Positions 10,567 through 40,171 of a stretch of 64,000 nt of DNA are shown here, piece after piece. The DNA is taken from IMG/VR virus record IMGVR_UViG_3300006145_000007, positions 40,400-104,399 of that record; one strand, 5' to 3'. The notes under the pieces are model-generated. The model was not told the DNA's origin. It did no database searches and worked only from the letters and a program-made list of their open reading frames with translations. Both the position numbers and the translations under genes were made by a program. Each line of letters opens with the position of its first letter. The first letter of the stretch is position 1. Origin of the DNA: a virus (Duplodnaviria > Heunggongvirae > Uroviricota > Caudoviricetes).

Positions 10567-10761
10567 ATTTGCATGGAATTATGGGGAGCTTTGTGGATTT
10601 ACATATCTGAAATGTTTTGAAAAACGAGATATGTTGGGCTTTATTGAGCTATATGTGGGTATGAAAAGTTCGGAAGTCCCACGATGCCAAGTTTCATAGT
10701 TAACTTCAGCTCCTTCAAAAGTCCTGATTTTTCAAGGGGTTCGGGGTTCTGTCATTCGGTG

Positions 10762-10792
10762 TTGACACAGAATTGACACAGTTTTGACACAG
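10762..10792 (+). promoter_or_regulatory. three direct TTGACACAG repeats abutting the int stop codon (arm-type sites, proximal arm of attP)
   Basis: Exact 9-mers at 10762, 10773 and 10784, 11-bp phasing; same motif as the 10546-10566 cluster 215 bp away. Confidence 0.5.
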
Positions 10793-10794
10793 TT

Positions 10795-24459: not shown

Positions 24460-25326
24460 TTGACCCGCTGTTTCCAGCGGCGCAGACTATATCTTCGGCC
24501 TTAGCCGTCCTTGCACTTCCAGCGGAAACTCATCCTCCGCCGTACTCCCTCGCGGGATAGTCGTTACACCTTCCGATATGGCTCCCACGCAAAACCTCCA
24601 GCCGAGTATGCGCGCAGGCTGATACATTGCAGTATCGCTCTCGCGCTTATACCGGTCTCACGCTCCGCTTCTGTGGCGGAACTATATACCTCAATGATGT
24701 CGCCGTCCTCTGTCATCTGAATGACTGGCGTACCTTTTGGTTTGCGCAGGTTGTTATATAAAGCGTGCAGGTTATTGTAGCTGTATGTAGTCCATTCCAG
24801 ATTGCTGACATCGTTGTTTGTCTTATCCCCGTCAATATGATTGACCATCGGATACCCATATGGGTTTGGAATGAACGCGGTGGCGACCAGGATATGTACC
24901 AGTGCCACATTAGATGTTCCGTCCCGGCGAAGGTTGACGACCATATAGCCGTTACCATCCTTGCCCTTGGTACGGGTCAGCTTCATCTCTCGTCCACGTA
25001 GGCGCCTTGGGTTTCCTTTCCTATCTATAACCGTGCGGTCTACACTTCTGACGTGGCCTGAGTCGCTGACTTCATAATACCCTTCATAACCTTGTATCGC
25101 TTTCCAGAGCATAAACACACCTCTCTGATCGGCTTGGCACGGTATCGCCTGCTATCCGTTGCCGGACCGTAGGTTCTCTTAGTCAGATGCTTCGTCCTTG
25201 GTGATGGCGCATATCTCCCTGTAGGGCTTCATGCGCCGGTCTTATTCATCTGATACCGTTAGCACCGCTCTAAGCGGCACACCCCTGAGTCATAGGGTTC
25301 ACAAGAAATGAGCTAATCACTAACCC
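24460..25326 (-). mobile_element. intervening sequence (~867 nt) splitting dnaE, group-I-intron-like, carrying an HNH homing endonuclease ORF
   Basis: Exon 1 homology ends ..ASAYMF| (5' exon ends in U) and resumes |RDNHSVAY..; exon-1 frame reads through 18 codons into a stop; HEG ORF inside. Confidence 0.55.
24564..25118 (-). CDS. HNH homing endonuclease (NUMOD4 + HNH_3-like)
   Basis: ..GYEGYYEVSDSGHVRS.. NUMOD4-like N-terminus; ..HILVATAFIPNPYGYPMVNHIDGDKTNNDVSNLEW.. HNH core. Confidence 0.8.
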   Translation of the reverse strand: MFMLWKAIQGYEGYYEVSDSGHVRSVDRTVIDRKGNPRRLRGREMKLTRTKGKDGNGYMVVNLRRDGTSNVALVHILVATAFIPNPYGYPMVNHIDGDKTNNDVSNLEWTTYSYNNLHALYNNLRKPKGTPVIQMTEDGDIIEVYSSATEAERETGISARAILQCISLRAYSAGGFAWEPYRKV

Positions 25327-27564
25327 AAACATGTATGCGGATGCGTCCTCAATGATCTTGAGGAACTGCTTGGCCTCCTCCTCCGCAACCTCTCGCGGAT
25401 GTTCTGACTTATCGCAGTACCCGTTGAGGATGACTGGCATCCATTCATCGAGGAGTTCCATCTTCTTCTTTGCGATGCCGCGCCGAACAGAGTCCGCCTG
25501 GCTTCCATTCAGGCCGCAGATACGCTGCAGGAATTGAATGATATCCTCCTGATAGACAAGGTATCCGAGGTTATCCTTCAGAAGCTCGTCAATCAGTTCA
25601 GACGGATTGTGGTTCTGTACTCTGGCGAGGAGCTGCTCACGATAGGACGCTCCAGACGGTCTGATACAGGCTGTCACCAGAGACATGTCGAAGATACTGT
25701 GGGTCTTGAACTTCTTCAGACTGTCGAACGCGAAGTTACCCTCCATCTGGAAGATACCGACAGGGCTTTTCAGCATGTCCTCCCACACGGCATCGTCGTT
25801 CCAGTCAATCTCATGTGTCTTCGGATATGGCCTGTTAAAGTACGAACAGCAGTCGCGGATGACCTGGACGGTCTTGAGTACCAGGAAGTCATACTTGGCA
25901 AGCCCAGCCTCGTGTGCTTCGTCCATGTCCAGCATGAGGCAGTTCTCTCCGTCCTTCTCAAATATGCCATAGTTATCTACCAATGTAACAGGACTGATAA
26001 CCATGCCGGCAGGGTGGACGGACTGCGAAACTTTTACTCCGAACATCCCCTTGACGAACCGGAATAGCTCCGGGTACTTCTTGGTGGTCGGAACCTCACA
26101 CACCTCGTCGAGGTGTTTCTTGTAGAGCTCGTCCTCAATCACGTCGTATTTGTCCAGAAGAACCTGCACGTCTGCGGCGAACTCCTTCTTGATGTCGCTG
26201 ATGCGTTCCAAAGACCACGGGTTGTCCTTTGATTCACCGTGTTTCTTCACCCACTCAAACGACAGGTGACGCCCAACGTCATCTATGACGCCACGACCTT
26301 TGATTGTACCGTATGATGCGACACGAGCTGTCTTGTCCGCCCCAAACCTGTTCGTGATGTACTCGAAGATTGCAGGGCGGTCAGCCTTCACAACGTCGAT
26401 ATCGATGTCCCCGATCTCCACACGATCCTCGTTACAGAATCGAGAGAACACGGTATGCCATGTCTCGGGGTTGAGGTCGATGATGTCTGTCACATATGCG
26501 ACCCGTGAACCTCCGACAGAACCACGGGCTGTGCCTATGGCCATACCCTGTTCTTTGCACCAGCAAATGAGTTCTGACATGGAACCCATGAACCCCATCA
26601 TGCCGATCTTGTGGAAGACCGCCATCTCTTCGTCGATTGCGGTACGGAATGCTTCTACCTGCTCAGGCGGAATCACACCGCTGGCTACCTTCTCATTGAA
26701 CATCCTATCGACACGCTCAATGAACTTTTCCTCGTCAGCTTCCTTCGACCCATATAGGATAGGATACTTGATAGACGTATCCACCTCGAAGTTCTCAACC
26801 ATATCGTCCAGGAGGTTTGTGTTCGCGATTGCTTCCAGGTACACATCTTCATCCAATGCGCCCTGCTTGGCGAACATATCCACCAGTTCGTCGTAGGTCT
26901 TGAACGTGAGATCGAATGTGTCCTCGTCCCCGTAGGTCTTGCGCTTCGCGCCGAGAAGGATCTGCCGGCACTCAGCTTTATACGGAGATGAGCTGTGGGT
27001 GTCTGTGCCTGCAATCAGCGGTGTCCCGAGTTCCTTTGACAGGGCAAGCAGCCGCCGGTTGAACGCATACTGCTCTGGATGGTCATGTGCCTGAACCTCA
27101 AAGAAGGTGTACTTCTTCGCCAGCTCCATGTACCGTGGATGCGTCACAGGCAGCTTATTGAGCGGAGAGGCGAGACACGCACTGGTAGATATGATGTTGC
27201 CTGAGATACCGAGGAACTCGTCAAAGGTGATGCGGTTTGTGTAGTAGAAGTGAGCCTTGTCACAGGACTTCCGAATCAGAAGGTTCAGCTCACGGATACC
27301 ATCCATGTTTCTGGCGAGCAAAACTGTATGGTAGTTGTCACGAATGCGTTCATTGCCCTCTGTGAACAGGCGCTCTGTCAGGTAAACCTCAACACCATAG
27401 ATGAACTTAATGCCCATCTTGTCGCAGTAGAGCTTCTTTGAAAGCCAACCACGCGGCAGGCCATGCTCTGTTGACGCGATTGCCTTCTGACCATTCTGCA
27501 CCGCAAGATCTACATACTCGCTGAACTTTGTGCAACTGTCGAGCAAACTGTAGTCTGAGTGCAT
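25327..27564 (-). CDS. dnaE: DNA polymerase III alpha subunit, exon 1 (PHP and polymerase core)
   Basis: N-terminal PHP domain ..MHSDYSLLDSCTKFSEYVDLAVQNGQKAIASTEHG..; ..GYLVYQEDIIQFL.. and ..ASAYMF.. match DnaE fingers. Confidence 0.8.
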
Positions 27565-27584: not shown

Positions 27585-28577
27585 CTATCGCAACCGCCTC
27601 CTTTCTTGGTAAAGCGTTTCGAAAACCTCCCGGCCTTTGTCGGTCGGGCTGTCCTTCGGCTCCAACATTTCATCTTTGTTGCGCACCCAGTACACGTTGG
27701 CATACTGCCTGAGCTTCATGATGTTCGCATCCTCACGTATGTTGATCTCGGCGTCCAATGCGAATGTTACCGCCACACCCAGTTTGATCAGGATCTTAAA
27801 CTGGTTGTCGTTCAGATGGCTTGTCAAAACCGCTCCGGTATTCTGGATACCCCAGCCGTCTGCCATCATCACGGACTTCGCGCCTTCAAACAGGATGATC
27901 TCACCCTTCGCACGAATCGGTGCGATGTTATCTGACAAACCGTAGATGGTATCCAGAGTACCAAGAGACTGAAAGTATGTGTACTTCCGAAGGTTCTTTT
28001 CCTTATAGTGTGGGTCGAGCGTTCTGCCGCATACGCTGATGATGTTGCCGCTGACATCACGGATTGGGTACACAAGGCGGTCGTAGAACGGATCATACCT
28101 GACCTGGAACTTTGCCATGGATTCCATACTGATACCTTCACGTTCCCACACAGCGAGCTTCTTTACATCCCACTCGTAGCGGTTCATGTAGTCGCTTTGC
28201 AGTACATAGGTTTTTGATTGTTTCTCCTTTTTATGCCTGACCTGAAACCTTTTCGCAACCGTTGTTGCAGCGAGCCGGCGCGGCGCGCTGGTCTGTTGTT
28301 CATCGTCTGTTATCCCGGCGTATCGTTTCAGGATATCGAGCCCCTTCAGGAACCCACAGTTGTGATATGCACATATGAAATCCAGAACATTCCCGCCCTT
28401 ACCGGACGAGAAGTCATAGAACTTCTGCATCTCTGTGTTAATGGAGAATGACGGTGTGCGTTCATCCTTGAGTGGACTGAGACACCAGTATTCGCCGTCC
28501 TCTTTTTCCACCGGATCGCAGAACTGAGATATGTATTCCAAGATATCAACACTCTCTACGATCTCGTAAACCTCCAC
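27585..28577 (-). CDS. dnaG: DNA primase (DnaG-like Zn-binding + TOPRIM)
   Basis: ..WCLSPLKDERTPSFSIN..FYDFSSGKGGNVLDFI.. matches the CHC2 zinc-finger region of primases. Confidence 0.65.
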   Translation of the reverse strand: MEVYEIVESVDILEYISQFCDPVEKEDGEYWCLSPLKDERTPSFSINTEMQKFYDFSSGKGGNVLDFICAYHNCGFLKGLDILKRYAGITDDEQQTSAPRRLAATTVAKRFQVRHKKEKQSKTYVLQSDYMNRYEWDVKKLAVWEREGISMESMAKFQVRYDPFYDRLVYPIRDVSGNIISVCGRTLDPHYKEKNLRKYTYFQSLGTLDTIYGLSDNIAPIRAKGEIILFEGAKSVMMADGWGIQNTGAVLTSHLNDNQFKILIKLGVAVTFALDAEINIREDANIMKLRQYANVYWVRNKDEMLEPKDSPTDKGREVFETLYQERRRLR

Positions 28578-28594
28578 ACCGTCACCCCCAAAAT

Positions 28595-29935
28595 TTAATA
28601 TGGTTCCTGCTGTACGTGCTGCTTTGCCTCTTCATACGAGATCAGGTTCCCGCAGAAGTTCATGTCTATGTATTCGTCTGGAGACATCTGCGGGCCGTTG
28701 CGGTTCAGCACGACACGAAGTTTCTTGTTGCCGCACTCAGGCCCGTCTGCCTCGATCTCTTCCGGCAGCTTGTCCTGGATGATTGCGATAGTCGAAGCAT
28801 TGCGCCCGATCTTTGCGCTGTCTGCGACTCTGCCTGTCGATGTGGCCTGCGCCGCTCCAATCCCGGCGATGTTCATATCACCACAGATCTGGTTCTTGAC
28901 CATATCGACAAACCTTCCGAGTTCCTGGTAGCTGTCGAAGGCGTCGCCCTCGCCCTTCCCCTTGAAGTAGTCCACAATCAGAACGTCAATACCCTGTGTG
29001 TGATTGACCTTCTTCACCGTCGTATAGATGCTTTGTGCGTCAAACATCGGCATATAGAGATGGGTGAAGCTCTTATTCTTCATCCACTTCCTGCACTCGT
29101 CAAGCCGCCTTGCTTCCTCTGGTGAGTAGTTTCCGCTGCGGACACGGTTAAACTCGATCTTCGCCAGATGTGCCATAAGCCTGCAGGTGAACAGGCGAGA
29201 GTTCAGCTCACTGTCTATATACATGACACGCTTACCTCTGCTCAGCAAATCAACAGCGCAGTTCAGGAGCATCATGCTCTTACCTTGCTTTGCCTCTGCT
29301 GCGAACACCACCAGCTCACCGGGTTCAATGGTCACATACTGATTGAGAGTCGGGAACTTGAAGGGGATACCGGATGTACCGTCCTTCTGCCTTTGACAGA
29401 TCTGATACCATAGGTCATCTACCACATCCTTATACTGAGGAACCTCTTTGTTTGTGGAGAACTGCATCATCACATCATCGAGGGTGGAGTAGATCTTTTG
29501 CTCGATTTCTTTTTCTGTCATACTTTGGCAGATATTCTGACACTCAGACAGCTTCTGGTAAGTAGCGCGGCGGAACGCCATATTGAGTACAGACTCTGCG
29601 GCGAGCCTGTAATCCTCCGGTGTGTTTCTGGCGATCGATGTCGCGGTATTGATGAACTCCTCAACATTCCTCTCGTTCAGGACACTGTCAACCTTCGCTC
29701 TCAGCTTTGGCTGCGACCTTAAGATATTCAGGATGTTGTATGCGTCAACCGTGTGGATGTTGTGCTCTTCGAGTTGCTTAAGTGCGTAGAAGAGCCAGGA
29801 GTTCGTTTGGTTTGTAAAATGCCTTGGGTTGAGCTGTTCCACCAAATACACGTAGTCCGGATGGAAGACCAGAGAGGCAACTACACCGGCCTCACTGTTC
29901 AAGTCGCAAATATCATTGACATCCAATGTAATCAC
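28595..29935 (-). CDS. dnaB: replicative DNA helicase (DnaB family)
   Basis: DnaB N-terminal domain, Walker A ..AAEAKQGKSMMLLN.., RecA-like core. Confidence 0.85.
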   Translation of the reverse strand: MITLDVNDICDLNSEAGVVASLVFHPDYVYLVEQLNPRHFTNQTNSWLFYALKQLEEHNIHTVDAYNILNILRSQPKLRAKVDSVLNERNVEEFINTATSIARNTPEDYRLAAESVLNMAFRRATYQKLSECQNICQSMTEKEIEQKIYSTLDDVMMQFSTNKEVPQYKDVVDDLWYQICQRQKDGTSGIPFKFPTLNQYVTIEPGELVVFAAEAKQGKSMMLLNCAVDLLSRGKRVMYIDSELNSRLFTCRLMAHLAKIEFNRVRSGNYSPEEARRLDECRKWMKNKSFTHLYMPMFDAQSIYTTVKKVNHTQGIDVLIVDYFKGKGEGDAFDSYQELGRFVDMVKNQICGDMNIAGIGAAQATSTGRVADSAKIGRNASTIAIIQDKLPEEIEADGPECGNKKLRVVLNRNGPQMSPDEYIDMNFCGNLISYEEAKQHVQQEPY

Positions 29936-30705
29936 CTTCCGTTCGTCTGGAAGAAGCAGCAGTCGCCGCTCTTATCACAGATATATCTGCACTTCCAGTA
30001 TTCTATCTTTGGAGACCAGTCTTCGTTCTCGGTGATTGTGTCAATGGTTTTGAGCGCCCATTCCTTTGTCTTTTCAAATTCTTCCTGACGGAAGGGCTCG
30101 GAGATCAACTGCCCCGTTCGGAAGCAGTTGAACTCCAGCCTGTCAGGGTATGTATGATAAAGCTGTTCCATCGGAACGCTATACAGGTAAAGCTGTCTCA
30201 GATATGAGTCCAGCTCGGCATCTGATACTGTTGGCTTCTTTCTCCCGGATCTTGGCTTCAGCGCCCTGGACTTGTTGTCAAGGATCACAAGTTTGCCGTC
30301 GTCCATCGCCACACAGTCGATGATACCTGTGAATGGTTTGTCACCAACGAGGAAGTCAACCTTCTGTTCCACCCCTACCGGCGACAAGTACGGGAAATCA
30401 ATCTCGCTTAGATAGTCGTAACCCTGATCAAAATAGCTTTTGAATATTCTGTTGCTCGGCGCCTTGCCCCTTACGTTCTTACGAAACCCGGACACATATG
30501 CGCCTGTCAGCTCTTCTTTCTCCAAAAAACCTCGCAGATACAGTTCAATCAGCTTGTGCATAAAGCTCCCGTAGTCCGAGAAGAACATGGGTTTCTTGTC
30601 CGCCTTCTTGATGTAAGAAAGCAAAAACCCATATGGGCACATCTCAAACTGACCGATCCGAGAATAAGACCATGTGAAATCCGAAATGATATTCGAGTAG
30701 TTCAC
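29932..30705 (-). CDS. PD-(D/E)XK nuclease, Cas4-like/RecB-family exonuclease with C-terminal Cys cluster
   Basis: ..IDCVAMDDGKLVILDNKS.. D..D/E.K motif; C-terminal ..CRYICDKSGDCCFFQ.. Fe-S-type cysteines. Confidence 0.6.
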   Translation of the reverse strand: MNYSNIISDFTWSYSRIGQFEMCPYGFLLSYIKKADKKPMFFSDYGSFMHKLIELYLRGFLEKEELTGAYVSGFRKNVRGKAPSNRIFKSYFDQGYDYLSEIDFPYLSPVGVEQKVDFLVGDKPFTGIIDCVAMDDGKLVILDNKSRALKPRSGRKKPTVSDAELDSYLRQLYLYSVPMEQLYHTYPDRLEFNCFRTGQLISEPFRQEEFEKTKEWALKTIDTITENEDWSPKIEYWKCRYICDKSGDCCFFQTNGR

Positions 30706-30723
30706 AAGTCTTCACCAGGTCTC

Positions 30724-31122
30724 TTAGAACGGCAGGCCGTCCTGATCGTCAACCTCACCGTCGTCCACGGAGAAAGCAGTCTTTTTCTTGCTGCCGCCAG
30801 ACTTCGCGGCGGTGTTCCCGGAAGTATTGCTGTCAGCCATCTCAAAGTCGAAGACCTTGTAGTTGACATACTCCTTCTGCTGCTCCTTGTTGTACGTGGT
30901 ACCCACGTCGCACTCCAGAATCCTGATCCGGTCTTTGGCCTTCAGGCTCTTGGCCGCCTCATGCGCCTTCCCGATGAAGGTGCAGAAGCCGGAGAAGTCC
31001 TGCTCATACTCACCGGTCATCTTGTTCTTGCGACTGGATGACAGGCGAACTCGTGTGGTGTTTCCGGACTTACTCGGCTCAGTTGACCACACAGACATGT
31101 AGTTCCCTACGCGAAATCCCAT
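30724..31122 (-). CDS. ssb: single-stranded DNA-binding protein
   Basis: OB-fold-sized protein with acidic C-terminal tail ..DDGEVDDQDGLPF (cf. SSB DDDIPF). Confidence 0.7.
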   Translation of the reverse strand: MGFRVGNYMSVWSTEPSKSGNTTRVRLSSSRKNKMTGEYEQDFSGFCTFIGKAHEAAKSLKAKDRIRILECDVGTTYNKEQQKEYVNYKVFDFEMADSNTSGNTAAKSGGSKKKTAFSVDDGEVDDQDGLPF

Positions 31123-31147
31123 AGTACCAACCTTCCTTATGTAATAC

Positions 31148-31861
31148 TTATTTCACGCCGAGTTCCTGCTTCAGCGCCTCGAACAGCTCGGACGCCTGAG
31201 CGGAAGTCTCTACGGCGTAGTAGTTCGCGCTCGGCTTGCCGTTCTCGCGAACATACTTCTTGGTCAACGTGATGACCTTCGGTTTGTCGTCAGGGTGCTG
31301 CGACAGATGGGCGGTCACCAGCCCATGGATCTGCTCCACGATCTTCCCGGCGATTGCGCGGTCTTCCTCGCCTTCAGCAAACCTCTGCTTGCTTCGCCAG
31401 TCGTCCGGGTCTTCGCCGTCCAGCGTTGCGATCTGGAAGAACTGCGTCAGGAACTGACGCAGGCCGTAGGTCAGACCGCTGCCGACTGCTTGTGCAGGAT
31501 CGGCTTGGCTCCCTGCGATGAACCATGGCACATCGATCCTCTCGGTCGGGTCATCATCATTCACCCAGGTGTAGACGATGCCGGCCTTCGCCGTGAACTC
31601 ATTGTTCTTCTCCTCGTACTGCTGGCCGTCTTTGGTGAACTTGGTCTTGCAGTATGTATACGGTTCGACGGACTCAGAGCCAGGAACGATGCTGGGGATC
31701 AGGGACACATTGTACTTGTTCATGCCGGCCGTGACCCTTGCCAGAATCTCGTCGATGGAGGTGTACTTGTAGTTGAACCCTTTCCGGTTCTTCTGGATCA
31801 CCTCTGTCATCTTGCGGATCTTGGACAGCTTCTGTTGGAGGTTCAAAACTTCTTCTGCCAT
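31148..31861 (-). CDS. ERF-family single-strand annealing recombinase
   Basis: N-terminal ..NLQQKLSKIRKMTEVIQKNRKGFNYKYTSIDEILARV.. matches the Erf superfamily pattern. Confidence 0.7.
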   Translation of the reverse strand: MAEEVLNLQQKLSKIRKMTEVIQKNRKGFNYKYTSIDEILARVTAGMNKYNVSLIPSIVPGSESVEPYTYCKTKFTKDGQQYEEKNNEFTAKAGIVYTWVNDDDPTERIDVPWFIAGSQADPAQAVGSGLTYGLRQFLTQFFQIATLDGEDPDDWRSKQRFAEGEEDRAIAGKIVEQIHGLVTAHLSQHPDDKPKVITLTKKYVRENGKPSANYYAVETSAQASELFEALKQELGVK

Positions 31862-31875
31862 ACTCGGTTCTCCTG

Positions 31876-32160
31876 TTACTCCACGGCGAGCAGCGACTTG
31901 AAGTTGGAGATCACCTTGTCGTTCTTGGCCTTTGCCTCGGCCAAGCCGCTCTTCGTAGCAGCAAGCTCCCTCTCATACTCGTCGATTTCGCCCATGGTCT
32001 CGCTGATGTTCTGGCTGATCTTCCCAAGCTCGTCAATCGTGTTGGTGACGAGAGACACCGCACGGTCAAACTGAGCATTGAACTGATTCAGCCGGTTCTT
32101 CTTCTGCGCCAAGATATCCATTGGCGCCTGCTGAGGTGTTGCCTGCTTCTTGAAAGCCAT
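31876..32160 (-). CDS. hypothetical coiled-coil protein
   Basis: 94-aa ORF. Confidence 0.4.
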   Translation of the reverse strand: MAFKKQATPQQAPMDILAQKKNRLNQFNAQFDRAVSLVTNTIDELGKISQNISETMGEIDEYERELAATKSGLAEAKAKNDKVISNFKSLLAVE

Positions 32161-32175
32161 GTTGTTTCCTCCTTT

Positions 32176-32787
32176 TTAATCTTGTTTTGCTTCTTGTATG
32201 TACGTAGCGGCCTCATCAGCCACATGAAGCAACCATGCCAGTGGGAACTGCTCATATGTCTGGCCGACATTCTCGTTATCGAATGCGCCCATATGGCAGT
32301 TGATCGCGGCGGCCTCCTCCGGTGTGAGCTTAATGAAATTCTGAACAATGAACACCGACTTACTGCCGTGACCGCCGAAGCAGAACTTTTCCTTGATGGC
32401 GTAGGAATCGTAGCTTTCCCACCTACCCTCGCTGTTCTTCCGATTCCGCTTCTCGGTCACATAGAAATTGACCTTACAGAGATCATGGAACAGCGCGATA
32501 ATCGCTGCCGTTTCCTCGGACGCCTGGATCTGTGGGTACGCTGCGAGCAAACGCTTCAGCTCGTCGTAGACGTTGAGTGAATGCTCCAGCAGACCACCCT
32601 GGTAACTGCCGTGGTATCTCCTGCTTGCCGGCGCTGTGTAGAAGTCACTGCTTTCCAGCCAGTCCATCAGACCATCTACGCCTTCTCTGTGGATCGCGCT
32701 GCACAGCGAGAGAAACCTTTCTTTCTCGTTCAATGGAACCACCCCTTTCATTCCGCGTACTCCCATGGATAGATAGGAATACTGCAT
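32176..32787 (-). CDS. HD-domain metal-dependent phosphohydrolase
   Basis: ..HSLNVYDELK.. and ..ALFHDLCK.. (H..HD..K signature). Confidence 0.65.
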   Translation of the reverse strand: MQYSYLSMGVRGMKGVVPLNEKERFLSLCSAIHREGVDGLMDWLESSDFYTAPASRRYHGSYQGGLLEHSLNVYDELKRLLAAYPQIQASEETAAIIALFHDLCKVNFYVTEKRNRKNSEGRWESYDSYAIKEKFCFGGHGSKSVFIVQNFIKLTPEEAAAINCHMGAFDNENVGQTYEQFPLAWLLHVADEAATYIQEAKQD

Positions 32788-33159
32788 TGATAGTTGATAG
32801 TGCCCATTTCAAGGCACTTATAGAGGGCGTCAGAATCAAACATTTTGAAAAATTTAACGCCCGGTCAACAGCTCTCGCTGGTGAACCCCTTATAGGTGGA
32901 TGTATTTATCTTCCAAAACTTTAGGGTTCCTGTCCCTCCCGAGCTTGACGAACTTGCCGTCTTTCAGCTCGTAGAGGAAGTAGTATTCCCTGGATGGCTT
33001 CGATGTTGTAATGTAGCGAAGGTTGCCGTCCTTGTCGTAGTGGCCGACCCATACAATCTCTCCCTTTGGATACGCATACTCCATACTCTCGCCTCAAATA
33101 ATAGTGTTGATAGAGCAAAAGAAAAGAGCCAGCCAGCACGGCTGTCTCTTTCCTGCCTG

Positions 33160-34089
33160 TTAGGTGAACACTGCTTTCCAGCAAGCGTAGTCATCAAACA
33201 GATCCCGCCTCAATATCCCTGCCACCTTGCTCCTTGTATAGTTCGTGTGGTAGGTGCTTCCCATCTTACTGATATGGTCAGCTATCAGTGTATCAAAGTT
33301 GACTGGGTCTCCCATACGTTCCGCCTCGTATACTCTGTAGAACACACCAGACAGGCGGAGCTTGCCGTATGTCAGCTCAACATCATGCGCCTTGAACGCC
33401 TTTTGGATGATACTTTTCACCGTGTTCAGCTTGACCTGTTCTGATCTGATACCACGCATCAGATACTCTCCGGCGCACCTGTTTCTGGTCTGCTTGTAAC
33501 GCGGGTGTTCATAGACGAACTCTGTCGCGTCACATGCCATGCGGAACGCTGGTATCGCTTCACGGTACAGCTCATAGGACTTGCCGCCATGCTCAATCAA
33601 CATAGAGGAGAAGTCCACTTCGCTGACCTTGATGTCAAGTGCGTCCTCTTCTGTGATGCCGGCGAACGCCATCCATAGGTAGCACCTGTAGATACAGTCA
33701 ACCGTGTTGCTCTCAACAGGCTGGAACACCTTGTCCAATGTCGCCTGGAGATGCCTCGGAGATGAAACCATACGGCGCCTTATCTTTTCGTCCATCTGAG
33801 ACTGCACATCGTAGATAGCGTCACATGTCTCATATCCGTTGTCCTTACACCACACGACGTATGAACGGAGGAAGGCGACATACGAATCCATAGACCTTGT
33901 TCTTGCACCGAAGTTCCCGTTTATAATCTCCTGCACAGTCTCCAGAGGAAGCTCGCAGAAGTCGGTGCCGGCTGCCTCCTCATACCTTCCTGTTGTCCGG
34001 AACACAGAACGTCCGAAGTCTGACGAACTCCGCGTGCTTTCGATGAACTGTACCTTGCGCTCTTCGTTATACATACCCGTCCTCCTCAT
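33160..34089 (-). CDS. hypothetical protein, translationally coupled to the upstream MazF-like gene
   Basis: 309-aa ORF whose ATG overlaps the MazF-like stop (ATGA at 34086-34089). Confidence 0.5.
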   Translation of the reverse strand: MRRTGMYNEERKVQFIESTRSSSDFGRSVFRTTGRYEEAAGTDFCELPLETVQEIINGNFGARTRSMDSYVAFLRSYVVWCKDNGYETCDAIYDVQSQMDEKIRRRMVSSPRHLQATLDKVFQPVESNTVDCIYRCYLWMAFAGITEEDALDIKVSEVDFSSMLIEHGGKSYELYREAIPAFRMACDATEFVYEHPRYKQTRNRCAGEYLMRGIRSEQVKLNTVKSIIQKAFKAHDVELTYGKLRLSGVFYRVYEAERMGDPVNFDTLIADHISKMGSTYHTNYTRSKVAGILRRDLFDDYACWKAVFT

Positions 34090-34517
34090 GCCACACTGTT
34101 CAGTCTGACAGACTTGCGCCAGACATCAATCAGCTCGGCTTCGTCCAGGAAGGAGATCGCTGCCGTGGCGATCAGACTTGCTATGGCGATCTGCTTCATG
34201 TACTTGTCGGACAGTTTAGTGATGAAGCTGCCGATACGTGTCTTGGACATCTTCTCTGGATTCTCGCATAGCACCATGCTGTCTTTTGGAAGCCCAGACT
34301 CTGATGATGCAACCAGGACATGGGTAGGTTGGCCTGTCTTCTTCATGACCTTAGTCATAGGGAGCGCAATCACATTAGGGCTGTGTGCGTTGCCAACATT
34401 GTTCTGGAAGACCACACCAGGTCTCCACCCGCTCTGCTCGTTCCCGACCCCTTCAAATTTCATGTAGTATACTTCCCCGATCAGTGGGGACACACATGCT
34501 TGACGAGTCTCGCTCAT
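34086..34517 (-). CDS. MazF/PemK-family endoribonuclease-like protein with ~50-aa C-terminal extension
   Basis: ..GEVYYMKFEGVGNEQSGWRPGVVFQNNVGNAHSPNVIALPMTKV.. matches MazF/Kid core (G.RP.VV...N); no MazE-like ORF upstream. Confidence 0.6.
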   Translation of the reverse strand: MSETRQACVSPLIGEVYYMKFEGVGNEQSGWRPGVVFQNNVGNAHSPNVIALPMTKVMKKTGQPTHVLVASSESGLPKDSMVLCENPEKMSKTRIGSFITKLSDKYMKQIAIASLIATAAISFLDEAELIDVWRKSVRLNSVA

Positions 34518-34554
34518 AACTCAGTACCTCGCTATAGTTTTTTAGGTTGGCCTG

Positions 34555-34583
34555 ATTATATCATATGGGCGCAGTTTTGTCAA
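34555..34583 (-). promoter_or_regulatory. consensus sigma-70-type promoter (TTGACA-17-TATAAT) driving the MazF-like operon
   Basis: On - strand: TTGACA (34583-34578), 17-nt spacer, TATAAT (34560-34555); GAGGT RBS before ATG 34517; near-perfect palindrome GAATTTTCGAGAAAATTTTC at 34598-34617 just upstream. Confidence 0.6.
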
Positions 34584-34615
34584 CACTTTTTTTTGAAGAA
34601 TTTTCGAGAAAATTT

Positions 34616-34924
34616 TCAAGCACATTTTAGGGTGAATCTTACCGGTATAGGCTCCCCATCCATAGAATAATCACCACATACGAAGATATAAACCTGGTAA
34701 CCATCCATTTTCCCTTTCTTCTTGATAGCCTGAATGTGGGTAAGACACAGGAAGTCAACACCATTTTTCAGAGCGATATAGGGGGACGCCGACAGGATCA
34801 CGGACGCATGGCTGAACTGGGTAGAGAAGGCGAGTGGGGTAAGCGGGTCGTCGTATTCCAGCATGAACCGGCTATACGTACCGATTTCATTGCGGAACTT
34901 CCCGAGAGACAGGTTTGATTTCAT
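34616..34924 (-). CDS. hypothetical protein, first gene of the leftward early operon divergent from cI
   Basis: 102-aa ORF. Confidence 0.4.
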   Translation of the reverse strand: MKSNLSLGKFRNEIGTYSRFMLEYDDPLTPLAFSTQFSHASVILSASPYIALKNGVDFLCLTHIQAIKKKGKMDGYQVYIFVCGDYSMDGEPIPVRFTLKCA

Positions 34925-35054
34925 TGTTTACCTCCAAAAAGGAACTTGACATACATGGTGTTTTGTGCTACTCTGTGAATGTAACATTCTGTTGATGTAA
35001 CAAACAATAACACAAACACTCTGTTATGTCAAGGCAAATTTTTCGGAGGTAGCT
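34925..35054. promoter_or_regulatory. divergent promoter/operator region between the leftward early operon and cI
   Basis: TTGACA..TACTCT promoter-like elements; repeated TGTAACA and CTCTGT(T/G) motifs (GAATGTAACATTC near-palindrome). Confidence 0.5.
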
Positions 35055-35825
35055 ATGGACTTCAAAGAAAACCTGAAAGCCATCAGGATGGATAGAGGCA
35101 TGACGCAAAGGTCTCTGGGTGTAAGCCTTGGCGTGACTCCAGTTACGATTGGCAACTGGGAGAGAGGAACAAGACAGCCATCCTTTGACCTGCTTGTCCG
35201 CCTTGCAGAAACTCTTAAAACGAGTACCGACGAACTGCTTGGCAGGTACTCCGGCAAGATACTGAGTCTTGAGGCAGAAGCTATAGCGCGCAAGTATGCA
35301 TCGCTTGACACACACGGCCGCAGCTTAGTCGATACTGTATGCACAATGGAGTATGAGCGAGTACAACATAGTGCGAAAGTTATCAGACTGCCGTCCCGTG
35401 ATGAATCTCAGCATGTGTCGCGGCACAGGTTCCTTCCCAAATACTTGTCCCCTCCGGCGGCAGGCTTTGGTGTACCGCTCGAAGGGGATGACTTTGAGAT
35501 GATTCTTGTAGATGACAACACACCAGATGATGCCGATTACGCGGTCTGCATCTCTGGTGACAGCATGGAGCCGTATATCTCAGATGGCGATATGGTGTTT
35601 GTGATGGAGACCAACGAGCTGGATGATGGAGATGTCGGCATCTTCTGTGTGAACGGAGAGATGTACTGCAAGCAGTATCATGTCGATGACAACGGAACCC
35701 TGCACCTCCTGTCTGCAAATCCGGACAGAGAGCGTGCAAGTTTCCATATCTCACCAGACAGCGGGTACAGTGTGCGGTGCTGCGGGAAAGTCCTTCTGGA
35801 CTTCTGTGTCCCTCTTCCTGACTAA
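35055..35825 (+). CDS. cI: CI-like phage repressor (XRE HTH + S24 LexA-type peptidase domain)
   Basis: HTH ..MTQRSLGVSLGVTPVTIGNWERG..; S24 motif ..AVCISGDSMEP.. and Lys in ..YCKQY..; only + strand gene within the leftward block. Confidence 0.85.
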   Translation: MDFKENLKAIRMDRGMTQRSLGVSLGVTPVTIGNWERGTRQPSFDLLVRLAETLKTSTDELLGRYSGKILSLEAEAIARKYASLDTHGRSLVDTVCTMEYERVQHSAKVIRLPSRDESQHVSRHRFLPKYLSPPAAGFGVPLEGDDFEMILVDDNTPDDADYAVCISGDSMEPYISDGDMVFVMETNELDDGDVGIFCVNGEMYCKQYHVDDNGTLHLLSANPDRERASFHISPDSGYSVRCCGKVLLDFCVPLPD

Positions 35826-36358
35826 CGCCTGTTCAAATAGGCGTGAGCAACCGCCGCACGGTACAGAGCTTCCGTTTCAAAGTTCATCGGGAAAACATGA
35901 ACCTCGTCGCCGTGTTCGCACCGTTCAATCCACGCTTTACGTCGTTCAATTTCAGCGATTCGTTCTTTCGCCTTATCTTCGACGGCCTTCCATTTCCTTT
36001 CCATTTCCTTCGGGTCAACCCACTCTGGGCATTTACCACCTATGAGTTTGAGGTATGACGGGTTGTTGAACAGTTCAGTGGCGTCATAATACTTCCAACC
36101 TTCTCGGATGGATATCTCACGAACAGCCATCTTTCTTTCATGTTCCCCGTGCGGGATGTACCCGCACATACGCTCAAACTCCATACGCTCCGCGCGGTCG
36201 GCACTTGTAGCCATACGTTCCAGCATACGCTGCCTCTCTCTATTGAAGCCGCAAGATGCTATATACTTCTGCTCTGCAGCAAGACCTACTGTCTCTTTCG
36301 CAGCTCTCCCGGCTATATACCCACCGCCTGCAAGCATCCACAAAAATTCAGATAGCAC
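35822..36358 (-). CDS. hypothetical protein
   Basis: 178-aa ORF convergent with cI. Confidence 0.45.
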   Translation of the reverse strand: MLSEFLWMLAGGGYIAGRAAKETVGLAAEQKYIASCGFNRERQRMLERMATSADRAERMEFERMCGYIPHGEHERKMAVREISIREGWKYYDATELFNNPSYLKLIGGKCPEWVDPKEMERKWKAVEDKAKERIAEIERRKAWIERCEHGDEVHVFPMNFETEALYRAAVAHAYLNRR

Positions 36359-36384
36359 GAACCTTCACCTCGGGTTACCTTTCG

Positions 36385-36615
36385 TTACGCAACAGCTTCG
36401 CTGATACTTTCCTTCGCCTCGTCAATCTTATCCAGGGCATCCTCCAGATTGTCGATCGCATTTTCCATACTCTCATACCGTTCACTATTCTGGAGATTCT
36501 CTGGGAGATTGTCGAGGCAATCCTGTTCCTCATCACGCGCATCAGATATCAGGCTGATGGCGCGGTCAAGGAGACTTGTCGCTTCTTTGAGCGAAGACCG
36601 TCTTCCCTTATTCAT
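36385..36615 (-). CDS. small highly acidic helical protein (DNA-mimic-like composition)
   Basis: Likely start at ATG 36615 (MNKGRRSSLKEATSLL..); ..DARDEEQDCLDNLPENLQNSERYESMENAIDNLEDALDKIDEAKE.. Confidence 0.4.
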   Translation of the reverse strand: MNKGRRSSLKEATSLLDRAISLISDARDEEQDCLDNLPENLQNSERYESMENAIDNLEDALDKIDEAKESISEAVA

Positions 36616-36616
36616 C

Positions 36617-36979
36617 TTAGTCCTCCCAAACATGCTTGACGCAGACATAGATCGCGACCTCACCGGACTTGGTCTGGCCCACAGAGAACACATCCACATA
36701 TTGCAGGATGTCTACGAACCTGACCATATCATCGCCATGCAGGTCTACACTCGGGACCTCTACAGAAAAGCTCGCATGGACAGACTCCGGGCGCACATCG
36801 AGGTTCTTTACCTCCACGTCGTTATCGTCTGCGAGCCAGCAGAAGAAGTCATACACCTTGTTGAACTTCTCCATGTTCGTCTGGTTCACGACGCCACGGC
36901 CGCCGGCCACGGCTTCGTTCACACGTTCTGAGAGATCCCTGACGTACTCACGCGGCGCGTTCCCATACACATCTGACAT
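36617..36979 (-). CDS. hypothetical protein
   Basis: 120-aa ORF. Confidence 0.45.
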   Translation of the reverse strand: MSDVYGNAPREYVRDLSERVNEAVAGGRGVVNQTNMEKFNKVYDFFCWLADDNDVEVKNLDVRPESVHASFSVEVPSVDLHGDDMVRFVDILQYVDVFSVGQTKSGEVAIYVCVKHVWED

Positions 36980-37045
36980 TACATTTACCTCCGTAGTTGT
37001 TCTTAAGATATTATACTTGATATGTAAAAATTTTTCAACCTTATA

Positions 37046-37696
37046 TCAGGCAATCACAGAACATCTGACATCAAGCCTGACCTTCGCTCCAGGAACCAGC
37101 ATCGCCACGATGGAATTTACTACCGCTTCCGCATTGATGGCACCCTGGAAGCTCATGCTGAAGTCCGTCATCTCCATACCGGAAGATGACGGCTTCGCTT
37201 TACTCATATCAAGCTGACAGATAAGCGGAGCCTGAACAACATCCTGTGGTTCTTCAGCGGCAGGCGGAGGAGGCGCCTCAACCTCTGCCTCGACTTCATT
37301 AAGGAACAGACGTTCAAACTCCTCGCGCCGATCCTTCGGCATCTTCTTCCCTGGGGAGAACTTGATCCCGATCTCCTCTGAGCTGCAATGCTTCGTCACG
37401 GTAGGAGCGCCGATTCCAAACAGCCTTGCGAGATCGGATGCGGTCGTTGAGTATTTCCGAATCATATCCAGCAGGTACTCCTTTTGGATCTGAACCGGCA
37501 TCTTCTTGAACTCCTCCCATGGCATAGGCTTCCCAAGCTGATATGTCACAGATTCACCACACCTTTCTAACCATTGTTTCCGTGTCATATGGTCTGTTGA
37601 CATAGGACACTTCTTACTTTTACTACCGGACTTCCTATGGAAAGCCTGTCGTGCAAGGCGCTTGCGCTGCATGACTTCGTAGTCAAAGTCATTCAT
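37046..37696 (-). CDS. HTH-containing protein with proline-rich linker (putative transcriptional regulator)
   Basis: Probable start ATG 37696 (MNDFDYEV..); ..TTASDLARLFGIGAPTVTKH.. HTH; ORF-track N-terminal extension to 37933 overlaps a better gene. Confidence 0.5.
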   Translation of the reverse strand: MNDFDYEVMQRKRLARQAFHRKSGSKSKKCPMSTDHMTRKQWLERCGESVTYQLGKPMPWEEFKKMPVQIQKEYLLDMIRKYSTTASDLARLFGIGAPTVTKHCSSEEIGIKFSPGKKMPKDRREEFERLFLNEVEAEVEAPPPPAAEEPQDVVQAPLICQLDMSKAKPSSSGMEMTDFSMSFQGAINAEAVVNSIVAMLVPGAKVRLDVRCSVIA

Positions 37697-37706
37697 ACCG
37701 CACCTC

Positions 37707-38117
37707 CTATAACTCGTAGCTGTAAGTATGATTCCCCAGATTGTCGGGAGGCGCGCCTTCGAGTTTCTTCGGATCGAAGTCGTCGTAGACGATACGTGCG
37801 TAGCACGCCTGCATCTTGCCGGCCATGAAGAACTTCTGCCACAGGTCTTCGTCGCTTTCACCGTGGCCGCTGAGCCAAAAGATCTGGTCAGGATACTTTG
37901 CGGACAGGATACGCATGTCCTCTTCGTGGTCATACCACTTACAGTTGGCGTAGTACGAGTCGGTCATATCCCCGTCCGTGAACACGTTCATCTTGTCAAT
38001 CTCCAACGCGATCTGCTCCTCAAGGATTGGGGAGATCTTGTCGGTCATCTTGACTGACCCATCCTCCTGGGTCTCCGTCCCATATACGCTGAGTGTGTAG
38101 TCGGTGTAGTATCCCAT
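37707..38117 (-). CDS. hypothetical protein
   Basis: 136-aa ORF. Confidence 0.45.
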   Translation of the reverse strand: MGYYTDYTLSVYGTETQEDGSVKMTDKISPILEEQIALEIDKMNVFTDGDMTDSYYANCKWYDHEEDMRILSAKYPDQIFWLSGHGESDEDLWQKFFMAGKMQACYARIVYDDFDPKKLEGAPPDNLGNHTYSYEL

Positions 38118-38119
38118 AA

Positions 38120-39265
38120 TTATCCTCCTCGTAGCTGATTTACTGAATCGATGATAAGCCGAATGGCCTCCTCGATCTCCTCGCCTGTAGTGTACTGTGA
38201 CACAGAAACCCGGATGGAGCTTCGGGCCTCATCTTCTGTCAGACCGATGGCAGACAGAACATGGCTTGGAACTGCATAGTGCGCCGAACAGGCAGACCCA
38301 GCAGATACCTCAACGCCTTGACTGTCCAGAAGCATAAGCAGCGTTTCTCCGTCCACATCATCAAAGCGCAGGTTCAATGTCTTCGAGTTATAGTGCGGCG
38401 TCCCGTTGACATAGACCCCAGACAACTGTGACAGAACGCCGTTCCTGATCGCCCCAACCTTTTTGCCGTACGCATAGGTATCATGGAGCCACTCTGCATG
38501 AGAAAGCTCTGCAGCCTTCCCGAGGCCGACGATGTATGGCACGTTGTGTGTGCCTCCCCGCAGCTCGTACTCCTGACTGCCGCCGTGAATCACAGGGCGA
38601 AGGAACTCCTTGTGTCTGGCGTACAAAAAACCGACCCCTTTCGGCGCGTGGACTTTGTGCCCAGATGCCGACAGGAAGTCGATACACGACAGGTCTACAT
38701 CAATGTTTGTACCGCAGTATGCCTGAACGCAATCCGTATGGAATAGAGCGCCGGCGCTCCTGCAAATTTCTCCGATACGTTCGATGGGGTATCGGTTCCC
38801 GATCTCATTGTTGACCGCCATGATTGACACGAGGCCAGTGTTCTCACGCATAGCTTCTGCCACACGCTCTGGTGGGATGTCACCGTCGCGGTCAACGTCC
38901 AGCCAAGTCACCTCGAATCCTGAATCAAACAGGGATTTTATTGCATTCAGAACGGAGTGATGTTCGACTTTCGTGGTGATGATGTGTGTGCGGCCCACAG
39001 ACTTCAGATAGTCTGCCAAGCCAACAATCGCCAAGGTGTTTGCCTCCGAGCCGCCAGACGTGAAGATGATGTTGCTCGGGTCGGCGCCGATGGGAACCGC
39101 GACCTGCTCCCGTGCTTTCTCTATTGCCTTCGCCGCTTTTCTCCCAGCGGAGTGGATGCTCTCCGGGTTCCCGTACACATCGGAGAAGTACGGTGTCATA
39201 GCCTCCAGAACCTCTGGGGATACCTTTGTGGTCGCCGCGTTGTCAAGATAAATCATTGGAATCAC
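38120..39265 (-). CDS. cysteine desulfurase (NifS/IscS-like class V aminotransferase)
   Basis: ..IYLDNAATTKVSPEVLEAM..; ..FTSGGSEANTLAI..; ..SASGHKVHAPKGVGFLY.. PLP-lysine region; ..SAGSACSA.. active-site Cys loop. Confidence 0.8.
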   Translation of the reverse strand: MIPMIYLDNAATTKVSPEVLEAMTPYFSDVYGNPESIHSAGRKAAKAIEKAREQVAVPIGADPSNIIFTSGGSEANTLAIVGLADYLKSVGRTHIITTKVEHHSVLNAIKSLFDSGFEVTWLDVDRDGDIPPERVAEAMRENTGLVSIMAVNNEIGNRYPIERIGEICRSAGALFHTDCVQAYCGTNIDVDLSCIDFLSASGHKVHAPKGVGFLYARHKEFLRPVIHGGSQEYELRGGTHNVPYIVGLGKAAELSHAEWLHDTYAYGKKVGAIRNGVLSQLSGVYVNGTPHYNSKTLNLRFDDVDGETLLMLLDSQGVEVSAGSACSAHYAVPSHVLSAIGLTEDEARSSIRVSVSQYTTGEEIEEAIRLIIDSVNQLRGG

Positions 39266-39271
39266 CTACTT

Positions 39272-40171
39272 TCACTTGCCGCTTTGTTTCATTTCTTCCC
39301 GGAACCTTAGATATGCTCTGGTGTACTCGTAGCTATCCTTGAAGATTGCGTTCGCAGCTTTCAATAGCTTAGGCTCATACTGCTCGATAGACGCCAGTTC
39401 CTCTTCAAACCGTTTGCCAAACGGACACCCAAAACATCCTGTGCGCACAAGGCCATATTCTGTGTAGCAACGGCTATGTGTTACATCGTAATGCCTGCAA
39501 TACTCTTCCTTGTCCGTATCTCGCAACCAGAAGATTGGGCGGAAGTAATCCATGCCGCCGGCTCCATCCGAGAAACAGCTATGTAATGCCGCAGACCTGA
39601 CGCCTCCTTCTGATTGGCGTATGCCGATACACGACAGGTCATATCCTTTTCCTTTTGCAAATTGTGCCGCAACATTTTTCTTTGCATAGGTGCAGCACTT
39701 GCTTGATATTTTGAATGTGGGAGGGTTCTGTACCATGAACTCCTTAAGATATGGGTTCCGCTTGATGGCGTATTGCGTTGTATTTCCGTAGGTAACATCA
39801 CACCACCATTCCAAAGCTGTTTTGCACTTTGGGTACTTGGCATACAGCTCGTCAAATGGTTTGTCTTCCCACTGGAAGTTGTGTCGCTGAAGGCGATAAA
39901 TCATCTCAGCGGCAAACTTTGACATAAATGGAACACCGTACTCCCGGTTTGATACTGGAATCGGTTTGACGGGATGCGCCTTCACAATTTTGATGCCATA
40001 CTTATCTTCGAGGTAACCAAGGTGTTCCAGTGTCGCTTGATATTCCAGACCCGTATTGAAAAACACAAAGTCTGTCTTGTTCTTGGCGCCACAGCGCACA
40101 AGCATATCAAGCATCACATCACTGTCGCCCCCCCCCGCTGATGGAGCACATAATCTTCTTATGCTCTTCAA
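39272..40171 (-). CDS. PP-loop ATP pyrophosphatase, PAPS-reductase/TtcA-like, with Fe-S type Cys pairs
   Basis: PP-loop ..PSAGGGDSDVML.. (SGGxDS); ..FFNTGLEYQATLEH.. (PAPS_reduct DTG..ET); Cys pairs ..SSKCCTY.. and ..GCFGCPFG..; in-frame G9 tract encodes the GGG of the P-loop. Confidence 0.7.
   Translation of the reverse strand: MKSIRRLCAPSAGGGDSDVMLDMLVRCGAKNKTDFVFFNTGLEYQATLEHLGYLEDKYGIKIVKAHPVKPIPVSNREYGVPFMSKFAAEMIYRLQRHNFQWEDKPFDELYAKYPKCKTALEWWCDVTYGNTTQYAIKRNPYLKEFMVQNPPTFKISSKCCTYAKKNVAAQFAKGKGYDLSCIGIRQSEGGVRSAALHSCFSDGAGGMDYFRPIFWLRDTDKEEYCRHYDVTHSRCYTEYGLVRTGCFGCPFGKRFEEELASIEQYEPKLLKAANAIFKDSYEYTRAYLRFREEMKQSGK

Follow-up and report, generated by a model that had tools for sequence, protein, structure and literature searches.

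In a 64,000-nucleotide (nt) stretch of the viral record IMGVR_UViG_3300006145_000007 (positions 40,400 to 104,399; hereafter the window), we identified a two-gene cassette in which a phage-encoded MazF-family endoribonuclease is fixed beside a homolog of MrpR and SroF, the repressors of phages SPbeta and phi3T. Full-text searches found no paper linking the two. Both protein families were already known, as was a functional link between MazF and MrpR-type repressors; what is new is the fixed genetic coupling, its occurrence outside Bacillus, and its coexistence with an S24 repressor. Going by what is known of SPbeta and phi3T, we see roughly an even chance that the cassette is a module for lysis-lysogeny control in which a phage MazF has been built into an MrpR-type repressor operon. 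The window, which includes genes for integrases, an endolysin, a capsid protein, NrdD, DnaB, DnaG and DnaE, represents a large temperate phage of gut Oscillospiraceae-type Clostridia. The elements of the cassette are as follows.

34555..34583, - strand: SigA/Sigma-70-type promoter of the mazF-mrpR-like operon, TTGACA-17-TGaTATAAT (12/12 consensus plus TG extended -10)
34086..34517, - strand: MazF/PemK-family endoribonuclease, 143 amino acids (aa), with a conserved 20-aa C-terminal tail (PF02452, phrog_1936, PDB MazF/EndoA)
34080..34087, - strand: ribosome-binding site GAGGAGGA of the mrpR-like gene, as read from the sequence, overlapping the mazF stop codon TGA (34088-34086)
33160..34074, - strand: MrpR/SroF-like repressor, 304 aa, with a tyrosine-recombinase fold (core-binding and catalytic-like domains) and without catalytic residues (PF22822, profile, AF2/Foldseek)
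33130..33144, - strand: terminator-like hairpin CAGCCG-TGC-TGGCTG followed by a T-rich run, 16 nt past the mrpR-like stop codon

Judging from its sequence, the product of the first gene is a catalytically intact MazF-family endoribonuclease. The match to PF02452 (PemK_toxin) scores 72.2 bits against a gathering cut-off of 23.1 (E = 4.8e-20), and residues 14-123 align end to end with residues 6-116 of Bacillus subtilis MazF/EndoA in the PDB (E = 5.5e-16), which bears out the MazF/PemK core proposed in an initial annotation of this DNA. In PHROG the protein matches phrog_1936, MazF-like growth inhibitor. R32 and T55 align with R25 and T48 of the B. subtilis enzyme and are conserved in 100% and 99%, respectively, of 73 distinct family members, and the GSEQ-G-RP loop is conserved as in B. 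subtilis MazF. We take R25 and T48 to be the catalytic residues of B. subtilis MazF (4MDX/4ME7), so that the residues on which the proposed activity depends are retained. The C-terminal extension, put earlier at 50 aa, comprises only about 20 aa (residues 124-143), because the alignment to residue 123 covers B. subtilis MazF and the Pfam model ends before MazF's own last helix. Within this tail, L129, W133, K135, A136, L139 and N140 are conserved. Mean pairwise identity is 0.60 for MazF, compared with 0.46 for the MrpR-like protein and 0.28 for p102, the product of the next gene upstream (see below), indicating strong sequence constraint on MazF within the family.

Compared with B. subtilis MazF/EndoA (YdcE), which is partnered by MazE/EndoAI in a type II toxin-antitoxin (TA) system (4ME7, 4MDX), the phage protein has the same full-length fold and the catalytic Arg and Thr but adds the conserved tail. 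Its gene, unlike that of the host, is phage-encoded, lacks a MazE-type antitoxin gene, and comes first in an operon whose second gene encodes a repressor. Solitary phage genes for MazF-like growth inhibitors (PHROG 1936; for example, in Coprococcus phage NatCom_10489 and Psychrobacillus phage Perkons) are also phage-borne and without an annotated MazE, but their products are of ~120 aa, tail-less and no more than 45% identical to the present protein, and they lie in other neighborhoods.

The partner of MazF had been described as a 309-aa protein with no recognizable domains. It has 304 aa, starting at 34074, and a remote-homology search of the kind that had been proposed assigns it to the MrpR/YopR/SroF family, whose known members bind DNA as monomers, act as repressors and have a tyrosine-recombinase fold from which the recombinase active site has disappeared. 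PF22822 (MrpR_N_CB) is matched with 43.1 bits against a cut-off of 27 (E = 7e-11) and is present in 120 of 120 homologs among the matches listed. A profile built from 24 family members finds phi3T SroF in the PDB (9rd5, E = 4e-7) and matches SPbeta YopR/MrpR (8bjv, 8bj6, 8a0a) across residues 1-285. With the AlphaFold2 (AF2) model (mean predicted local distance difference test score, pLDDT, 90) as query, the best six Foldseek matches are MrpR/YopR/SroF structures (E ~1e-7; template modeling (TM) scores of 0.43-0.56, reduced by a domain hinge), followed by XerA, phage integrases, and Cre. In UniRef, a 48%-identical member from Intestinimonas butyriciproducens is already named 'phage lytic cycle repressor MrpR'. 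On these sequence and model comparisons, the 304-aa protein is a full-length remote homolog belonging to the MrpR/YopR/SroF family, and it is predicted to bind DNA; its composition is basic.

Active-site positions were mapped by HMMER alignment to YopR and then through Table 3 of Kohm et al. (PMC10516654), that is, by sequence alignment and not by structural superposition, with the following result.

Arg-I position: F137/A138, not Arg
Acidic position: D144, acidic, retained
beta-hairpin Lys position: K165, retained in close relatives only
His-II position: G237, not His
Arg-II position: R240, in a column that varies within the family (R/Y/F/W/K/Q)
Tyr position: probably Y296, invariant

Because active-site residues have been lost and PF00589 (Phage_integrase) gives no match even at E values up to 1, the protein is probably a dead-recombinase DNA binder like MrpR. 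It matches phrog_5830 'integrase' (4.5e-10), and no profile similarity was found between its family and the window's own integrase. The family comprises at least 848 clusters at 50% identity (E <= 1e-30), and no homolog was detectable in 50,697 GenBank phage records. One member, P0258, is 453 aa long and has a duplicated core-binding domain; neither it nor a second long member, P0264, contains a MazF part.

Linkage of the two genes was assessed in 103 loci anchored on the MrpR-like gene plus further loci from neighborhood searches, and in 80 loci anchored on mazF, with genes called by purpose-built hidden Markov models (HMMs); individual loci are cited by L numbers. An intact mazF lies directly upstream in 106 of the 111 MrpR-anchored loci that include enough upstream sequence, and the MrpR-like gene lies directly downstream in 76 of 78 MazF-anchored loci, at full length in 62 of 63. 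The pair is kept down to ~28-35% identity in the MrpR-like protein. Recurrence as a conserved cassette, which had been put forward as a test of the pair, is thus strongly positive. The trio of p102, mazF, and mrpR-like gene also occurs in a different, small, non-phage-like element with a Tn916-type Xis/Int (L009-L012). Departures from the pattern are few. p102 and the MrpR-like gene occur without mazF in L099/L100/L102 and L105, a split mazF stands beside an intact MrpR-like gene in L059, and mazF has no partner in L159 and a shortened one in L179; p102 is missing beside MazF and the MrpR-like protein in L033, L108 and L114, and is inverted and downstream of the MrpR-like gene in L016. Tandem MrpR-like copies are present in L109 (4072-6945). 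A MazF-MrpR fusion was considered as a Rosetta-stone clue and rejected, the sole case (L171, 3971-5389) being a probable 1-nt frameshift with one extra A in a homopolymer.

Promoter, mazF, mrpR-like gene and terminator together form a predicted self-contained two-gene operon. The promoter previously reported at 34583-34555, TTGACA-17-TATAAT on the - strand, matches all 12 consensus positions, carries the additional TG, and in a consensus scan was the sole perfect site within 28000-40000. All 77 distinct related loci have a near-consensus promoter (>=10/12) at the same position between p102 and mazF, 75 of them with the TG extended -10. Of 81 distinct related loci, 51 (63%) have a hairpin with a T-run after the second gene, as against 18 of 300 random segments (6%). 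The mrpR-like ATG (34074-34072), a start fixed by homologs, lies 11 nt past the mazF stop behind GAGGAGGA, and across related loci the two genes are 10-35 nt apart. The overlap of stop and start codons noted previously, in the form ATGA, holds for the longest (309-aa) open reading frame (ORF), but the homologs all begin at MYNEE, corresponding to the ATG at 34074. On the - strand, p102 is followed by the mazF-mrpR-like unit and then by early recombination and replication genes (ERF, SSB, PDDEXK, DnaB, DnaG and DnaE), which places the cassette in the lysis-lysogeny control region, between an S24 repressor gene and the early replication genes.

Several other elements were sought in or near the operon. 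An RNA antitoxin or other noncoding RNA was rejected, as the cassette has neither an Rfam match nor a ToxI-like tandem array. PADLOC returned no match for MazF, the MrpR-like protein or p102, and NCBIfam no assignment for the cassette proteins. In related loci, two alternative conserved leaders are found in the 5' untranslated region of mazF, 3' of the -10: ATCAACATAATTG followed by GAAGGAG, and a hairpin CCGTAAGAT...ACGG that abuts the ribosome-binding site (e.g., L008, L014, L022; L023, L025, L026). The window has neither. Downstream, a gene for a 64-aa protein (32890-33084, MEYAYPKGE...YYLYE) belongs to a small family present in ~60% of related loci at positions that vary relative to the cassette; it was rejected as a fixed partner, being directly downstream in just 13 of 116 loci.

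The region upstream of the operon contains four further features.

34591..34620, - strand: A+T-rich upstream element with phased A-tracts GAAAATT-N5-GAAAATT-N4-A8, containing the 'palindrome' of the initial annotation
34616..34924, - strand: p102, a conserved small all-beta protein of 102 aa, the usual upstream neighbor of mazF (iterated HMM, AF2)
35004..35032, - strand: promoter-like site TTGACA-17-TATTGT with TG, presumably placed to drive p102 (10/12 consensus; overlaps repeated TGTTACAT)
35055..35825, + strand: LexA/CI-type phage repressor (HTH_3 and Peptidase_S24), divergent from the p102 gene (Pfam, phrog_4)

The 20-bp near-palindrome that had been interpreted as an autoregulatory operator is present just upstream of the -35, as GAATTTTCGAGAAAATTTTC at 34598-34617, and is unique in the window, but the actual inverted repeat, AATTTTC-GA-GAAAATT, has only 7+7 nt around a 2-nt spacer (34599-34614), and Tandem Repeats Finder (TRF) calls the same stretch a 12-nt direct repeat. 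Viewed on the - strand, it consists of three A-tracts, 11-12 nt apart, immediately upstream of the -35, and it overlaps the stop codon of p102. The palindrome is not conserved and lends an autoregulatory operator no support, an inverted repeat of at least 7 nt being found upstream of the -35 in 8 of 75 related loci compared with 3.7% of shuffles. What is conserved upstream is a composition of 73% A+T with frequent A/T tracts; A4T4 tracts occur twice in the 64 kb, each at a promoter. The element is probably better read as phased A-tracts, which would fit an UP-element or a curved-DNA activator. It would equally fit an asymmetric A-tract operator of the kind that SroF reads as a monomer (bioRxiv 10.1101/2025.11.27.690993), and not a dimeric palindromic operator.

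Weak A/T-tract similarity is seen at three promoter-like sites of the window. A second strong promoter, TTGAAA-17-TATAAT at 37010-37038, overlaps the only other A4T4 tract, and a related A/T-tract sequence lies at 32840-32870, upstream of an HD-domain gene. Both are possible candidate operators for the MrpR-like protein.

The initial annotation held that no antitoxin-sized ORF precedes mazF and that MazE is lacking. The former is incorrect, since a 102-aa ORF, conserved in this neighborhood, ends 98 nt upstream of mazF: the p102 family was found upstream of mazF in ~90% of loci by iterated HMM searches and in 65 of 66 MazF-anchored loci. The latter stands, in that p102 is all-beta, has no match to MazE, AbrB or RHH proteins, and is separated from mazF by the conserved promoter. 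No Pfam, PHROG, NCBIfam or PADLOC match was obtained for p102. Its AF2 model (pLDDT 90) has one helix and eight strands, with no significant fold match in the PDB or BFVD and no sequence match in the PDB. The pI is near neutral and the composition is not that of an acidic DNA mimic. Identification of p102 as MazE, or as Sar, the anti-repressor of SroF, was rejected on the same grounds, with neither a sequence nor a fold match and a pI near neutral. The divergence of p102 correlates with that of the MrpR-like protein (r = 0.90, partial 0.88); we do not count this as specific pairing because binning shows that MazF identity plateaus at ~0.55-0.65, which largely explains it.

The gene divergent from p102 encodes a repressor with matches to Pfam HTH_3 (6e-15) and Peptidase_S24 (5e-18) and to phrog_4, transcriptional repressor (1e-36); RstR-like and LexA-like NCBIfam matches are both under their curated cut-offs. 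Of 102 related loci, 65 have a homolog upstream of p102 in divergent orientation. In the window, the divergent region (34925-35054) contains repeated TGTTACAT motifs and the small palindromes TGTTacatcAACA and GAATGttaCATTC, which are likely to be operators of the CI/LexA-type repressor. p102 is a candidate anti-repressor or MazF modulator that would not be MazE-like, and a role resembling that of Sar is conceivable because p102 adjoins the MrpR-like gene even in loci without mazF and because of its promoter context. Like Sar, p102 is small, is encoded beside a repressor gene, diverges in step with the repressor, and has a gene preceded by a promoter region that is associated with an SOS-type (S24) repressor. 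The two differ in that Sar is a mixed alpha/beta intertwined dimer encoded downstream of its repressor gene, whereas p102 is all-beta, encoded upstream and not acidic; no homology between them was detected.

The interpretation that we favor draws on the SPbeta and phi3T systems. In those phages the master repressor is MrpR/SroF, encoded by the final gene of yopM-R/sroA-F (PMC10516654; bioRxiv 10.1101/2025.11.27.690993). MrpR binds SPBRE sites, one of them at yopM, with which its own operon begins, and YopM acts on MazE/MazF (PMC10516654). Host MazF promotes lysogeny in phi3T (PMC10769878). MazF reportedly degrades most phage mRNAs but spares the sro operon (bioRxiv 10.1101/2025.11.27.690993), and AimX, YosL and phi3T_93/YopM tune the host MazE-MazF pair (PMC10769878; PMC10516654). 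Sar is an SOS-controlled anti-repressor that releases SroF and co-evolves with it (bioRxiv 10.1101/2025.11.27.690993). By analogy, the MrpR-like protein would repress lytic promoters and probably also its own A/T-rich promoter region, as SPbeta MrpR does at yopM-R. MazF translated from the same transcript would provide an RNA-level arm, keeping lytic transcripts low and favoring or stabilizing lysogeny. The job done in phi3T/SPbeta by a host MazF mobilized by the repressor operon would here fall to an RNase encoded within that operon. Such an enzyme would have to be restrained, by narrow sequence specificity or by a protein partner, for which the MrpR-like protein is the likelier candidate and p102 the less likely; the conserved C-terminal tail is a further candidate restraint. 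p102, transcribed from a region shared with the S24 repressor, could act as an SOS-released modulator, a functional analog of Sar and not its homolog.

Comparison with known systems shows where the analogy holds. The MrpR-like protein shares with MrpR (YopR)/SroF the two-domain fold, PF22822, and the missing catalytic Arg and His, and in both cases the repressor gene is the last of a MazF-tied operon in a large temperate phage with its own DnaE-type polymerase. The differences are a sequence identity of only ~12-13%, a setting in gut Clostridia instead of Bacillus, two genes in the operon instead of six, MazF itself in place of YopQ/SroE as the upstream gene, an adjoining separate CI/LexA-type S24 repressor, and no arbitrium genes or SPBRE-like repeats seen in the window. 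The co-option of host MazEF by arbitrium phages likewise connects MazF with an operon for an integrase-like repressor and with the choice between lysis and lysogeny (PMC10769878; PMC10516654); there, MazF is host-encoded and steered by small phage MazE mimics or binders, whereas here it is phage-encoded and no MazE mimic was identified. Such a large family of uncultured gut-Clostridia phages with an intact MazF fixed beside the repressor homolog suggests that the partnership between MazF and this type of repressor is ancient and general, not a Bacillus peculiarity, and the two-gene operon offers a minimal system for testing how MazF promotes lysogeny and connects to the repressor, questions left open in SPbeta-like phages. 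The family also shows MrpR/SroF-type repressors to be widespread outside Bacillus and able to coexist with a CI/LexA-type repressor.

Several points weigh against the lysogeny-control interpretation. The mechanism rests on analogy with SPbeta/phi3T, and, with a CI/LexA-type repressor in the same phage, the role of master repressor may not fall to the MrpR-like protein. The six-gene sro operon is not present, only two genes being found here, and no AimR-sized unassigned ORF was seen in the window, in which not every ORF was scanned. No dispersed SPBRE-like operator was found, in that no 12-20-mer repeat (mismatches allowed) recurs in at least 4 of 39 intergenic regions, the window perhaps not covering the whole phage. 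p102 differs from Sar in fold and lacks the acidic composition of a DNA mimic, and its co-divergence with the MrpR-like protein is largely an effect of the MazF plateau. Across 55 diverged cassettes, UACAU occurs 106 times against 134 expected, which is no real avoidance.

Setting aside this interpretation, the rival closest to the earlier proposals is a toxin-first type II TA system, for addiction or stabilization, in which the MrpR-like protein is primarily an antitoxin that binds MazF and autoregulates the operon, without repressing lytic genes. The idea of a toxin-first pair with a large partner keeps support from the recurrence of the cassette and the intact MazF residues; the partner, however, is not an unknown protein. 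The tight linkage and translational closeness of the genes, the basic, DNA-binding-like partner, the persistence of MazF and the MrpR-like protein without p102, and the occurrence of the trio in a non-phage-like element would all suit a TA system. So would the pattern of loss, in which MrpR-like genes outlive a missing or split mazF and an intact mazF without its partner is very rare, but this asymmetry is weak, with few loci on each side. We regard the TA system as unlikely, as no known antitoxin has a tyrosine-recombinase fold, the characterized family members are phage master repressors (PMC10516654; bioRxiv 10.1101/2025.11.27.690993), conservation is lacking for the kind of palindromic operator through which TA systems typically autoregulate, and the lone 'fusion' ORF looks like a frameshift in an A-run. 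Likewise doubtful is a hybrid, an integrase-fold repressor that also serves the phage as antitoxin to its MazF. If true, inactivation of the repressor at induction (for example, by p102 released on cleavage of the S24 repressor) would also free the RNase, coupling transcriptional and RNA-level switching in one complex. Such a protein would be without precedent among antitoxins in having a tyrosine-recombinase fold, and the phage would have taken the MazF part of an SPbeta-type lysogeny circuit into its own genome. The canonical antitoxin-toxin order, with p102 as a novel MazF antitoxin and the MrpR-like gene merely adjacent, agrees with the size of p102 and its position directly upstream of mazF in nearly all loci. 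It is nevertheless quite improbable: a conserved strong promoter stands between p102 and mazF, p102 stays beside the MrpR-like gene in loci that lack mazF (L099, L105), is missing where mazF is intact, and in L016 is displaced altogether, and its all-beta fold has no similarity to MazE, AbrB or RHH proteins.

The remaining rivals give the cassette a role other than lysogeny control or self-poisoning. As a prophage defense or superinfection-exclusion moron, MazF would cut the RNAs of incoming phages, with the MrpR-like protein as regulator or immunity repressor. A strong promoter and terminator of its own are moron-like, solitary MazF-like genes are common in phages (phrog_1936), and B. subtilis MazEF restricts antitoxin-deficient SPbeta/phi3T without killing the cell (bioRxiv 10.1101/2023.04.27.537455). 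This role is distinctly unlikely given that PADLOC finds no match, that the cassette has a fixed position in the switch region and not in a variable moron hotspot, and that obligate pairing with a repressor-family protein would be left unexplained. A host take-over RNase for lytic growth, co-expressed with an accessory DNA-binding protein, is suggested by the PHROG category of the MazF-like proteins ('moron, auxiliary metabolic gene and host takeover') and by the place of the operon at the head of the early gene array; it strikes us as very improbable, because the promoter is of host type and constitutive-looking, the terminator insulates the operon from the early genes, and the pairing with a repressor family fits maintenance of lysogeny better. 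Finally, the tyrosine-recombinase fold and the phrog_5830 match might point to an active site-specific recombinase (integrase or invertase), with MazF stabilizing the element. This is scarcely credible in view of the missing PF00589 match, the replaced Arg-I and His-II residues, the lack of family conservation at the Arg-II and Lys positions, the non-catalytic MrpR/SroF as nearest structures, and the two bona fide integrases encoded elsewhere in the phage. The partner from the MrpR/SroF family and the position in the switch region therefore move the likeliest role from addiction, abortive infection or host take-over to lysogeny control, and we favor a lysogeny-control module because in the Clostridia phages the RNase is apparently part of the repressor operon itself.

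Self-protection of the operon by avoidance of a 5-mer was considered separately and rejected, no 5-mer being convincingly depleted in the 55 diverged cassettes. The mazF ORF (34086-34517) itself contains two UACAU sites (4.6 per kb, z = 2.8 relative to shuffles), a number that is not significant alone and sites that are not conserved in the family; the MrpR-like, p102 and S24-repressor genes contain none, and the counts in the window are not significant.

Relatives are found on viral contigs of 50-139 kb and in genomes or metagenome-assembled genomes of Intestinimonas, Flavonifractor, Acutalibacter, Angelakisella, Ruminococcus and Oscillospiraceae. Among them, two isolates of I. butyriciproducens (GCA_015553415.1 and GCA_028321485.1) have a 48%-identical cassette. 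Elsewhere in the window, a 396-aa tyrosine integrase is encoded at 10795-11985 and a second integrase-like gene lies at 6642-7664. Three copies of GACACAGnnTTGACACAGTTTT at 10537-10796, in a 477-nt intergenic region beside the 396-aa integrase, may be arm-type or regulatory sites. A 143-nt direct repeat with 88% identity (2779-2921, at the 3' end of a 754-aa ORF, and 3274-3416, just upstream of a reverse transcriptase) and the reverse transcriptase (RT) itself (3656-4771, RVT_1 1e-13) give 671-4771 the variable repeat/template repeat/RT (VR/TR/RT) layout of a likely diversity-generating retroelement. The DnaE-type polymerase is split between a 764-aa ORF (25270-27564; PHP, pol3-alpha and finger) and a 308-aa ORF (23506-24432; HHH_6), with a 184-aa ORF (24564-25118) in between. 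Relatives have one 1077-aa ORF, and the split (23506-27564) is possibly due to an intron, an intein or a homing endonuclease insertion. Adjacent genes for NAD synthase and a NAPRTase/NAMPT-like protein (60575-63207) form a phage NAD-salvage pair, which could counter NAD-depleting defense systems.

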